From assembly GCF_006345805.1 (NCBI RefSeq), contig NC_043020.1:2294001-2358000 (forward strand): a stretch of 64,000 nucleotides of DNA, in the 5' to 3' direction. Below, piece after piece: positions 41,090 to 62,508 of this stretch. The number at the start of each line of letters is the position of its first letter. Positions within the stretch are counted from its first letter, which is position 1. Source of the DNA: Octopus sinensis. Lineage: Eukaryota. The notes beneath the pieces were generated by a model. That model was not told the origin of the DNA, ran no database searches, and worked only from the letters and a program-made list of their open reading frames with translations. Position numbers and translations under genes: made by a program.

Positions 41090-41765
41090 GTAGGGCAGTA
41101 TTTACATTGGAAAATATGTAAGCACTACAAAATCAGCACTCCTGCTTACTGGTATGAAGATCAACCTGAGCCCATCGCTGGAGGTAAAAATGTCTCTGTC
41201 TTCTGGGATTTTCCAGTCAGCACCGATGGAACAATGCAAGCTAAATGACCAGACATTATTATTAAAGGATGTGAGAGAAAATACTTGTTGACTTATAGGG
41301 GATAAAAATACATCTGTAAAGGAATTTGACAAATTAAGTAAATATAAGGAACTGGGAATTGAAATACAAAAGTTGTGGCATCTTTAAGCAAGAACTCTTT
41401 CTGTTATTGTAGGTGCCCTAGGGATGTCAGAAACATCTAAAAGTGATTTAAAACTGGAAACGGGGGCTCTAATCTGTGCTGCCCAAGAGCAAGCACTAAG
41501 AACAGACTACATAAAATACAGAATAGACAACACATCAGAAAGTGATAAGTGCAGAATCTGTGGACAAAACAGTGAAACTGTATTTCATATTACCAGCCAA
41601 TATATGCCACTAGCCCAGAAGGAATATCAGAGACGCTACAACAATATAGCCAGGCTTGTCCATTGGACACTCTGCAACAAGTATGGTCTTGACAGAGTGA
41701 AAAAGTGGTGCGAACATAAACCTGAAGGCATCGTCGAAAATAGAAATGCAAAGATCCTATGGGAC
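41090..41765 (+). pseudogene. R4/Dong-like (restriction-like endonuclease) LINE fragments
   Basis: 41100-41425: LHWKICKHY..WYEDQPEP..VFWDFPV..PDIIIKD..KLSKYKEL..VIVGALG. 41424-41765: LICAAQEQALRT..CRICGQNSETVFHITS..LVHWTLC..KILWD (zinc knuckle). Confidence 0.8.
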
Positions 41766-41909
41766 CTTTGCATTTCTATTTCTGGTGAGGTCAGCTTTAC
41801 CTTTCATAAGTACCAGTTGAACACTGGGGTCAATGTAGTAATTGACTTACCCCCTCCCCCAATGAAATTCCGGGCCAAAATTTGAAATTTAGGCTTATTC
41901 ATTTATTCA

Positions 41910-42986: not shown

Positions 42987-43589
42987 GAGGTACTGGAATC
43001 AAAAGCTTAGAACAGAAGCAACCGTATTTAGGAAGAGATGAAAATGATAGGATATGACTCAATACTAGAAATAAAATAATAGGTATAAATACACCAGTTA
43101 TTAGAGTGATAAACTTTAGCATAACATATTTAGGAAGCGATAAAACTGGTGAATATACAACACAAAGAACTAAAGAGGGAAATTGGGAAACAGTATAACA
43201 GAAGAATTGGACTAGCACTGGAAATGTAAGTCAGAAAATAAAATAATGCAGTTGTGTGGTGGGAGGCTTGCTTTCCAGCCACATGGCTCTGGGTAAGTGT
43301 TATCTGCTGTAGCCTCGAGCCAACCAAAGCTTTGTGAGTAGATTTGGTAGACAGAAACTGAAAGAAGCTCATCGTGTGTGTGTGTATATATATATATGTA
43401 TACATATATAGACAGATTGATAGATAGATAGATAGATAGATATGTATGTATTTATATATATATATATATATATATATGAATATGTGAAGGTGCATGGCTC
43501 AGTGGTCAGGCTTCTTTCAGTTTCTTTCTACCAAATCTACTTACAAGGCTTTGGTGGTCCCAAAGCGAGATTAGAAGACATTTGCCAAA

Positions 43590-43922
43590 GGATGTGGGCT
43601 GTTCCTAGCAGGGCTACTTTTTGGAACGTGTGTAGTGTAGAGAATGCAGGTAAAGCTTCTACACTTTTTGGGGTTTTTTTCTTTTTTAATCATGCCCAAT
43701 GTTCCAATTATTACTGGTGTCTTTTTCACTTTCATGTTCCACATCTTGAATACTTTATTCCAATCCTTGACTATTATGTCTGGACGACTAGCTTTTATTT
43801 CTTTGTCAGTTTGAACAGGTATATCGCAGATGACTGTGGCCTGGTCGTTGTCTTGTACCTGGTTTGGCACATGTTTATACCATTTACAGTCAGTTTTTAT
43901 GTCGTTGTGTTGGAATATTGTC
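43590..43922 (-). pseudogene. R4/Dong-like LINE endonuclease fragment
   Basis: DIPVQTDKEIKASRPDIIVKD ... PVIIGTLGMIKK. Confidence 0.7.
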
Positions 43923-52108: not shown

Positions 52109-52176
52109 AAAGGGTTGAGAGGAGAGAGAGAAGAGGCGGATATCTTCAGTTCAGGTAGAGTATTCGAAAGGCTCAC

Positions 52177-52261
52177 CTTGTCTTTTGAGTTCTTCATGTG
52201 CCACTGCAGGGTGAAGGAGCTCCACATCATAATTTGCAGAAGAGCTGGCATTTTGTTCTTC
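52177..52261 (-). CDS. INTS13: INTS13/asunder internal exon (EEQNASSSANYDVELLHPAVAHEELKRQ-G), 85 bp
   Basis: Minus-strand acceptor tttctttctaaaacag|GAAGAA and donor CAAG|gtgagc. Peptide matches recalled human INTS13 EEQHANTSANYDVELLHHKDAH. Phase 0 in, phase 1 out. Confidence 0.93.
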
Positions 52262-52613
52262 CTGTTTTAGAAAGAAACAGAGAAAAATGAATAAATAAAC
52301 TGAAGAGGAGGAGATAGAGGTGAAAGGGAGTGAAATAAAAAGAAGGAACGAAAACACAAGAGGAGGAGGGGTGGAGGAGGAGGAGGAGGAAAGGTAAGAA
52401 ATAGATACATAAAACTCTTCAAGGCAGTGCCCCAGCATGGCCACTGTCAAATGACTGGAACAAGTAAAAGATAAAATAAAGATGTGTGTGTGTGGAGCAG
52501 GATTACACATATAGGAAATATTTGTCATAGAATATACATGTGTGTCTGGTTAACACCATAAACATATAAATGTAGTCTATAACATACAAACACACACACA
52601 TAAGCATCTGTAC

Positions 52614-61368: not shown

Positions 61369-62017
61369 TAAAGGGAAAGTTTACAAAAATAAACAAAAGA
61401 CGAAGGCAGGTGGAGTACAAACAAACAAATGTATTAGTATAGCACTCAGGAATAGAAATAGAAAAAGTCTTTTACGTTTCGAGCCTACGCTCTTCGACAG
61501 AAAGATACACAGAAAGAAAGAAACAAGGAGAGAGAGAAACAAGAAGAGAAACAAGGAGAGAAAAAAGGAGAGAAAAAATGCGTGTAGGAGCTAACGATCT
61601 ATCATGTACAGTGGGCTTCTTTCTGTCTCTGCCTACCAAATCTACTCACAAGGCTTTGGTCAACCTGAGGTTATAATAGAAGGCACTTTCCAAAGTGCCG
61701 TGCAGTGGGACTGAACCCAGAACCATGTAGTTGGGAAGCAAACTTCTTACCACACAGCCACGCCTGCATATATCTTGTAATGTTTATCTTTTAATTATGC
61801 TGTGTCAATATTTAAGAAGTAAAACGGCCTTAAAAACATTTACTTGCATTTCTTATATAGAATTTCTTTGGGAAACAGTCTATTTAATTTTTTAATTATA
61901 CTATGTGAGAATGGCTATTCTGGGATAAAATAAGAAAAGCTGATTAAAGCATTTGTTTACAGTTTTGAAATGGAGTTTAAATGAGAAATATATTATCACA
62001 TTAATTATTTGTATTAT

Positions 62018-62508
62018 AGAAATGTTACATTTCTAAATATCTCAGAGAGATATAAGCAGTAGTGGTACGATAGAGCGGTTGTATACTGTCAACTTAACGT
62101 AACAGTCCCATAAAGGGAATCACACCACCGGTATTTAGCCCTAGGAAGCATCAACGCTTCCTGTCGGCCTTGACACATTTCCTGTGTCCTTATGTTTACA
62201 AGGGGGAGATAAGCACCCCCACCCAGCTAAGCCTGCATCCAGAGACTAGTTTCTGAGTTTTTGCTCATCATCAGTCTGGAGTAGCATGGCTTGCTAGCTG
62301 CAGATGCTTGTCTAGACCTTGTAAACATATATAATAATTCCAGTGAAATAAATCCACTGATCACAAAAACAGAAATATTACATTTCTAAATATCTGAGAG
62401 AGATATAAGCAGTGGTGGTATGATAGAGCAGTTGTATATTTCACTGGAATTATTATATGTTCACAAGGCCTAGACAAGCATCTGCAGCTAGCAAGCCATG
62501 CTACTCCA
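62018..62508 (-). mobile_element. Non-autonomous Penelope-pLTR/retrozyme-like element
   Basis: ~68 bp direct repeat at offset 353 (62018-62085 / 62371-62438). Inverted copy of 62277-62350 at 62437-62508. Internal hammerhead; no ORF. Confidence 0.65.
62238..62280 (-). ncRNA. Minimal type I hammerhead ribozyme motif
   Basis: Minus strand reads TCCAGA-CTGATGA-TGAG-caaaaa-CTCA-GAAA-CTAG-TC-TCTGGA. It has a perfect 6-bp helix I, intact core, 4-bp helix II, palindromic ACTAGT helix III and a GUC site. Confidence 0.8.

Follow-up and report, generated by a model that had tools for sequence, protein, structure and literature searches.

Among the closest described relatives of the sequence considered here are the non-LTR retrozymes of metazoans which, in the part of the source available to us (PMC7229834), are units that encode no protein, contain a type I hammerhead ribozyme and have a GC content below 50%; in mussels they are about 350-390 nt long. 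They have a highly self-paired fold and longer target duplications when these are present, and they coexist with Penelope-like elements (PLEs). The octopus family described in this contribution shares all of these properties. It differs from the retrozymes of that source in that its copies are mostly dispersed and partial or about one unit long, not arranged in tandem arrays, and in that it carries explicit PLE marks, lacks the G10.1-C11.1 pair of the hammerhead and has a dedicated LINE parasite.

PLEs have an optional 3' tail and inverted copies (PMC8557442, available sections). For the anole PLE, it was shown that both strands of AT-rich DNA are nicked, that cDNA synthesis begins from two internal positions, and that ribozyme cleavage is not needed for insertion (PMC11167929, available sections). 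The octopus unit shares with PLEs (anole Poseidon, PMC11167929; structure, PMC8557442) the optional 3' tail between two fixed ends, the inverted 5'-truncated copy, partial tandems, AT-rich targets and a hammerhead upstream of the 3' ends. Unlike them, it has no reverse transcriptase (RT)/GIY-YIG frame, its tail is about 53 nt instead of 30-40, its hammerhead is of the canonical and not the minimal type, and it has no sequence match to the resident pLTRs tested.

Retrozymes and their proposed dependence on PLEs are already known (PMC7229834; bioRxiv 10.64898/2026.07.22.740005; both as far as available). The second of these sources presents vertebrate retrozymes as non-autonomous PLE derivatives, with monomers arising from rarer multimers, and the same relationship is proposed here; the evidence there is pLTR homology, whereas here it is an insertion signature with no parent found. 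In its available part, eight of nine tested dimers were without cleavage, and no mollusc is among the species sampled. Tx1-clade LINEs (Tx1 in Tx1D, Tx1-Mar in Mariner-N4, Keno in U2; PMC4494074, in part) combine an endonuclease-RT-zinc-finger ORF2 with insertion at one site in another repeat, target duplication and tandem re-insertion. The octopus LINE has the same features but targets a hammerhead retrozyme across at least four diverged families, has an ORF1-only derivative that uses the same site, and is assigned to this clade provisionally.

Here, we analyse a copy of the octopus family located in a 64,000-nt stretch of Octopus sinensis DNA (the window). We consider it probable that this copy is a dispersed member of a protein-free retrozyme family of about 353 nt, likely inserted in trans by a Penelope-type enzyme and containing, just upstream of the ribozyme, a specific site for an L1/Tx1-type LINE. 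The presence of PLE scars and of a site-specific LINE in a retrozyme family appears to be what is new here. With Repbase, Dfam, subscription journals and supplements left aside, where a prior annotation is possible, we found no report of a cephalopod retrozyme or of a LINE that targets retrozymes in the literature.

Architecture of the locus

The element is read on the minus strand, and element coordinates (e) count from e1 = 62438, the first base of the hammerhead core being e165 (Table 1). The 353-bp period of the preliminary description is evident: the two copies of the 68-bp direct repeat are 93% identical and spaced by 353. The repeat is nevertheless not the terminal redundancy it was taken for. 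The window copy, 1.19 units long, was cut from a head-to-tail template, and the repeat is no terminal repeat of the element. The inverted piece does stop inside helix I, as had been noticed: it is the reverse complement of its sense counterpart with two substitutions and a 2-nt deletion, and it ends 2 nt before the 5' strand of helix I is complete.

Table 1. Features of the retrozyme locus in window coordinates.
Feature	Position	Strand	Remark
Retrozyme sense body	62018..62438	-	421 bp: one 353-bp unit and 68 bp of the preceding unit
Penelope-type "tail"	62018..62070	-	Between the family's two preferred 3' ends (~62070; 62016-62018)
68-bp direct repeat, downstream copy	62018..62085	-	
68-bp direct repeat, upstream copy	62371..62438	-	3' end of the preceding unit; head-to-tail junction 62371/62370
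Type I hammerhead with extended helix I	62228..62292	-	Core 62238-62280; predicted cut between 62244 and 62243
Palindromic helix III ACUAGU	62245..62250	-	Predicted pairing between two ribozymes
Target site of the family's L1/Tx1-type LINE	62284..62300	-	Empty in the window copy
Inverted 5' arm	62437..62508	+	Antisense to 62277-62350; 2-nt overlap at the join
INTS13 exon closing the element's intron	52175..52264	-	

Compared with the letter most common in each column of the examined copies, the window copy diverges by 4.3%, and its 3' end is the distal one of the family's two preferred sites. Its inverted arm ends at e162, an atypical place for the family; the sequence there resembles the proximal 3' site (CTACTCYA), and this arm end is perhaps a cryptic cDNA start. 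No target duplication was found at the window locus. No empty allele was seen either: one contig (run X17) reaches 27 letters into the element from the left flank, where bridging needs 31.

The host gene INTS13 (PF10221) is encoded on the minus strand; its preceding exon is found 6.3 kb past the window end, and the boundaries are GT/AG. The element is therefore intronic and in the sense orientation, which agrees with the earlier proposal that it is part of the INTS13 pre-mRNA. With its one ribozyme, the window copy cannot release a circle alone. In the predicted fold of the pre-mRNA the arm pairs with e89-162; once it is included, the pair probabilities of helix I fall from 0.26-1.0 to 0.0 and the active fold is predicted to cost 8.3 instead of 1.8 kcal/mol. 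The circle of about 353 nt that had been envisaged is thus not expected from this copy. With its single ribozyme sequestered in this model, the INTS13 pre-mRNA is likely uncut and the copy is likely inert within the intron. The single locus is ordinary and probably harmless to INTS13.

Family size and sister families

The window stretch has 3104 first-look candidates in the genome; only the best candidates are scored in these genome searches, and the 40 scored here, the window copy aside, are 87-96% alike. The exact core pattern of the hammerhead has 826 matches in the genome, compared to 5 for a reversed control pattern. Among the first 30 of these matches, 24 belong to the family of the window unit and 6 are other hammerheads; most of the 826 belong to the family, which comprises at least many hundreds of copies. 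The aligned family pieces differ by 3-22% from the per-column commonest letter, and the family appears from these alignments to consist of several subfamilies of different age. No near-identical partner of the window copy was present among the aligned pieces. Contigs at least 85% alike occur in four runs with four organism labels (482, 37, 2197 and 1343 records).

Sister hammerhead families that are more diverged and have different helices number at least three (L276, L284-L289, L301, L330-L373). Two have a 343-360 bp period, and a third resembles the unit in its 3' part. First-look candidates amount to 1218 in one sister family and 2139 in another, and some sister-family cores begin with UUGA or CCGA. 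Six loci (L033, L036, L042, L043, L048, L057) hold other hammerheads that are unrelated to the unit although they share the GAAACUAGUC end.

Insertion marks

The marks left by insertion were read from 73 non-redundant loci picked by core pattern, after six loci of other families and three second-arm loci were dropped. The 3' ends fall at e350-372 in 35 loci, at e400-423 in 20 and elsewhere in 18, so that two fixed sites account for 55 of the 73. An inverted arm on the 5' side is present in 46 loci, and 44 of these arms end outward at the same two sites. The flanks are 78% AT (versus 63%). Target duplications of at least 8 bp were found in 7 of 30 best-match loci and in 20 of 870 cross-locus control pairs; such duplications, when present, are longer than 4 bp, as is expected of non-LTR retrozymes. 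These marks match both the PLE pattern of tails and inverted copies (PMC8557442) and two-site initiation at AT-rich targets (PMC11167929), as described in the available parts of those papers. They support the suggestion that the window element is a retrozyme-like retroelement which codes for no protein, contains a hammerhead and bears the marks of Penelope-type insertion.

The junction between units is crossed in 24 of the 73 loci. Since many copies run through both the cut site and this junction, their template must have been an uncut multimer or a circle and not a cut linear monomer. Direct dimers are rare: they are absent from the 73 pattern-picked loci and were found in 2 of the 30 best matches and at one further locus, and no long tandem array was seen among the loci examined.

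Two pairs of distant loci (L242/L243 and L248/L252) have the same inversion junction within each pair and may be segmental duplicates or re-mobilised composites. At another locus (L238) two inverted unit pieces, 1.1 kb apart, lie upstream of a truncated copy.

The hammerhead and its possible activity

The ribozyme consists of helix I (UCCAGA/UCUGGA), the CUGAUGA core, a 4-bp helix II with a 6-nt loop, GAAA, ACUAGU and the GUC site. All elements expected of a hammerhead (CUGAnGA, GAAA and an NUH cut site) are present, as are three helices with an open helix I, and the helices are supported by covariation. The fold of the whole unit, in which the ribozyme caps a long rod, has z = -7.9 when linear and -6.8 when circular; together with the excess of core matches over the reversed control, the linear value indicates that the hammerhead is not due to chance. 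No Rfam hammerhead model matched, even at E<=10, in the model search that had been recommended. The Rfam miRNA and snoRNA matches were discarded as microsatellite or hairpin noise.

The preliminary description called this a minimal type I hammerhead. The core, the GUC site and the helices bear out type I, but not the minimal form. In the available part of PMC4209133, the minimal form (min-HHR) has a long helix II (7-8 bp) and a short helix I (4-5 bp), whereas the weak palindromic helix III of the canonical metazoan type I form needs a second ribozyme. In the window copy helix I extends over at least the interval given in Table 1 (6 bp, a bulge and a long extension) and helix II has 3-4 bp, the alternative reading being a 3-bp helix with one extra base per side. 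By the definitions of that paper, the sequence is that of a canonical metazoan type I hammerhead and not of a min-HHR.

Across 56 family rows 89.5% of cells are paired. The loop of helix III, read by eye, is UA in 50 rows and AU in 6, and half-changed in none. This double change, which was probably inherited from a single event, also occurs in 40 contigs of run X20. Covariation was scored on 25 hand-picked rows, 12 near and 13 from sister families, in which related rows inflate the counts: 14 of 15 pairs changed on both sides, and the score was 0.585 compared to 0.273 for shuffled and at most 0.202 for slid alignments. Thus, the conserved core and helix covariation, whose lack in other copies had been named as fatal to the retrozyme interpretation, are present. 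The long rod beyond helix I had one-sided changes only and no net covariation term (+0.24).

The G10.1-C11.1 pair is highly conserved in type I hammerheads (PMC4209133, available part). It is absent here: the window copy has U10.1-A11.1, the position is unpaired in 39 of 55 rows, and the 28 young copies have C-A (21) or U-A (7). The young subfamilies may therefore cleave poorly or not at all. The inner ends of the inverted arms do not accumulate where the ribozyme would cut: the 7-nt bin of that site holds 4 of 55 ends, with up to 6 in other bins, so the genomic copies provide no cleavage footprint. The unit is covered by contigs from two runs that are presumably RNA; they show neither strand, nor ends, nor level.

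It is possible, if rather unlikely, that the hammerhead is vestigial in the young subfamilies and that the unit is a SINE-like PLE passenger copied from uncut multimer transcripts, with no circle being formed. The state of the 10.1/11.1 pair in young copies and the absence of an end pile-up at the cut site would both fit this scenario, as would the ability of the anole PLE to use uncut RNA as a substrate in vitro (PMC11167929, available part). However, the young group has kept the core while changing the palindrome on both positions, and multimer source loci are rare whereas junction-crossing copies are common, which a circle explains simply.

Resident Penelope-like elements and the search for a coding parent

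The genome contains several PLE families. Neptune-like PLEs have open frames of about 1008 amino acids with RT and GIY-YIG similarity, the clade names used here being our own reading. Two Neptune-like families (L099-L118) with variant hammerhead-like cores in their terminal repeats are candidate active mobilisers. Two very abundant young GIY-YIG families (L169-L218; about 15,000 and 16,000 first-look candidates) reach 95-100% protein identity; each has two 3' ends beside (TA)n, and one ends in YCTAT, as the retrozyme does. In an old Poseidon-like family (L119-L168) that has its own hammerhead, every scored copy is short or broken. The sampled PLE families have their own 3' ends, and some have their own hammerheads.

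A coding parent of the unit was sought among these elements. Beyond nested or separate insertions, no sequence was shared with the unit at 53 loci around Neptune-like RT matches and other PLE fragments, at 50 Poseidon-like loci or at 50 loci of the two young GIY-YIG families. In the reverse direction, PLE proteins compared with 52 unit loci (7 kb upstream) and 40 sister-family loci revealed only nested or separate insertions. The window unit itself has the optional 3' tail and inverted 5'-truncated copy of PLEs but no RT and GIY-YIG frame between pLTRs, and is no autonomous PLE. It also has no homology to a resident pLTR, a comparison that covered five PLE families. As none of these families has the unit as its pLTR, it is best described as a non-autonomous retrozyme, likely mobilised in trans. 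Within that sample, the possibility raised at the outset that it is only the end of a known autonomous element did not materialise. The non-coding 353-nt unit with 42% GC and a type I hammerhead lies within the bounds set for non-LTR retrozymes (150-450 nt, GC below 50%). Head-to-tail repeats with two or more ribozymes are absent from the window copy, and the head-to-tail junction is seen in the family. By sequence criteria, long tandem arrays excepted, the unit is a non-LTR retrozyme.

The unit could instead have served as the pLTR of an autonomous Penelope-like element, one that has died out, is rare or escaped the searches, and the copies would then be 5'-truncated insertions of that element. 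The unit shows every PLE insertion mark, Xenopus retrozymes are homologous to pLTRs (bioRxiv 10.64898/2026.07.22.740005, available part), and our searches scored the best candidates only and sampled the PLE families in part. Nonetheless, we consider this explanation improbable. In both young and old subfamilies, copies that reach far enough 5' continue into a further unit's tail and cross the junction at the frequency given above; none of the 52 loci with 7 kb of upstream sequence has a PLE frame abutting the unit; the 3' ends of the five PLE families are unrelated to it; and the three sister families likewise repeat or end as 340-365-nt units.

A site-specific LINE

In 11 of the 73 loci (10 identified by script, with one script match rejected, and 1 by eye) a LINE 3' end is joined to the unit within e139-147, in most cases some 25 nt upstream of the core. 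At five loci the LINE splits the unit, with both halves present and a target of about 9-16 bp duplicated; these duplications were read from printed junctions, an exact-match automated search being too strict. A search anchored on the LINE, with a query containing no retrozyme sequence, provided two sets of 30 loci. The ORF1-only LINE, three of whose loci were already known, is followed directly by a hammerhead unit in 20 cases; in 9 the target site recurs next to it and a further LINE comes after, and 1 is truncated. The ORF2-bearing LINE is followed by the unit in 24 cases (2 after a gap) and by the target site and another element in 2, and is 3'-broken in 4. The target follows the LINE in 29 of 30 and 24 of 30 loci, respectively, where target-specific LINEs are recognised by a target in more than 20% of flanks (PMC4494074, available part). 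The site is used in the family of the window unit and in at least three sister families with differing helices. The L1/Tx1-type LINE and its 1.4-1.9-kb ORF1-only derivative often occur in tandem at this one site (L031-L065, L219-L333).

Relatives of the LINE ORF2, about 1150 amino acids long, contain PF03372, PF00078 and PF13966 (endonuclease, RT and zf-RVT), the domains being read from these relatives. The nearest solved structure of one of them is human L1 ORF2p, and the best named protein relative, among the matches listed, is from Argonauta; those matches include no named Tx1 reference. A zinc-knuckle ORF1 is a Tx1 trait, and the LINE ORF1 gave zf-CCHC matches of 18.5 and 20.4 bits, under the cut-off of 20.8. 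The "Tx1" label should accordingly be read as one based on a weak zinc knuckle and target specificity (PMC4494074, available part), not on a tree.

Five LINE-retrozyme chimeras have no upstream unit half within 7 kb. In two chimeras (L268, L292) a PLE-type inverted retrozyme arm lies against a truncated LINE, which suggests that the chimera was copied by the Penelope route. At L061 several elements are nested within a single split retrozyme, namely an ORF1-only LINE, a LINE in reverse orientation, a fragment of Poseidon-like sequence and the 3' end of a LINE.

A further reading would make the LINE the mobilising element and regard the hammerhead unit as its partner SINE or its 3' end. This is very improbable and largely refuted by the five split units, which have a duplicated target on either side. 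A unit does follow nearly every intact 3' end of the LINE, but 62 of the 73 units have no LINE, and the units end at fixed non-poly(A) sites with outward-facing inverted arms.

A model of mobilisation and its implications

The mobilisation of the retrozyme in trans by a Penelope-type enzyme may be envisaged as follows. Rare dimer and trimer loci would produce head-to-tail multimer transcripts in which paired hammerheads cut, and a ligase could close circles. The template was an uncut multimer or a circle, as the many copies extending through both the predicted cut site and the junction between units show. The enzyme would then nick AT-rich DNA and, on either strand, begin cDNA synthesis from two internal positions separated by about 53 nt, which would give rise both to the two fixed 3' ends and to the outward-facing inverted arm. 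At the window locus, the predicted consequence is an arm that sequesters the ribozyme. The LINE, for its part, inserts upstream of the core, and the Penelope-type route may subsequently carry the resulting LINE-retrozyme chimeras.

A longer chain with three tiers can be put forward tentatively, and we regard it as possible rather than probable. Penelope enzymes would copy circular hammerhead RNA, a LINE lineage would have specialised in the position just upstream of the hammerhead across diverged families, with the ribozyme trimming the LINE transcript, and the Penelope route would carry the LINE and its ORF1-only cargo as a composite resembling pLTR-ORF-pLTR.

The mobilisation of animal retrozymes by Penelope elements has so far been proposed from co-occurrence and pLTR homology. 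In the octopus family the insertion scars themselves are of the Penelope type, no coding parent was found, and exact predicted cDNA start sites can be given. A LINE homing to the base of the hammerhead across diverged retrozyme families is a target class absent from the literature found; its endonuclease site is short and well defined, and it lends itself as a natural test of the exploitation of ribozymes by other elements. The drift from G10.1-C11.1 across subfamilies, in turn, makes it possible to ask directly whether selection favours weak cleavage.

Other features of the window

Near the element, positions 61701-61779 of the window hold a short dispersed SINE-like repeat that is common to several of the fetched loci. 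Farther away, the frames at 41388-41885 (plus strand) and 43571-43921 (minus strand) resemble what we take to be decayed C-terminal regions of LINEs.
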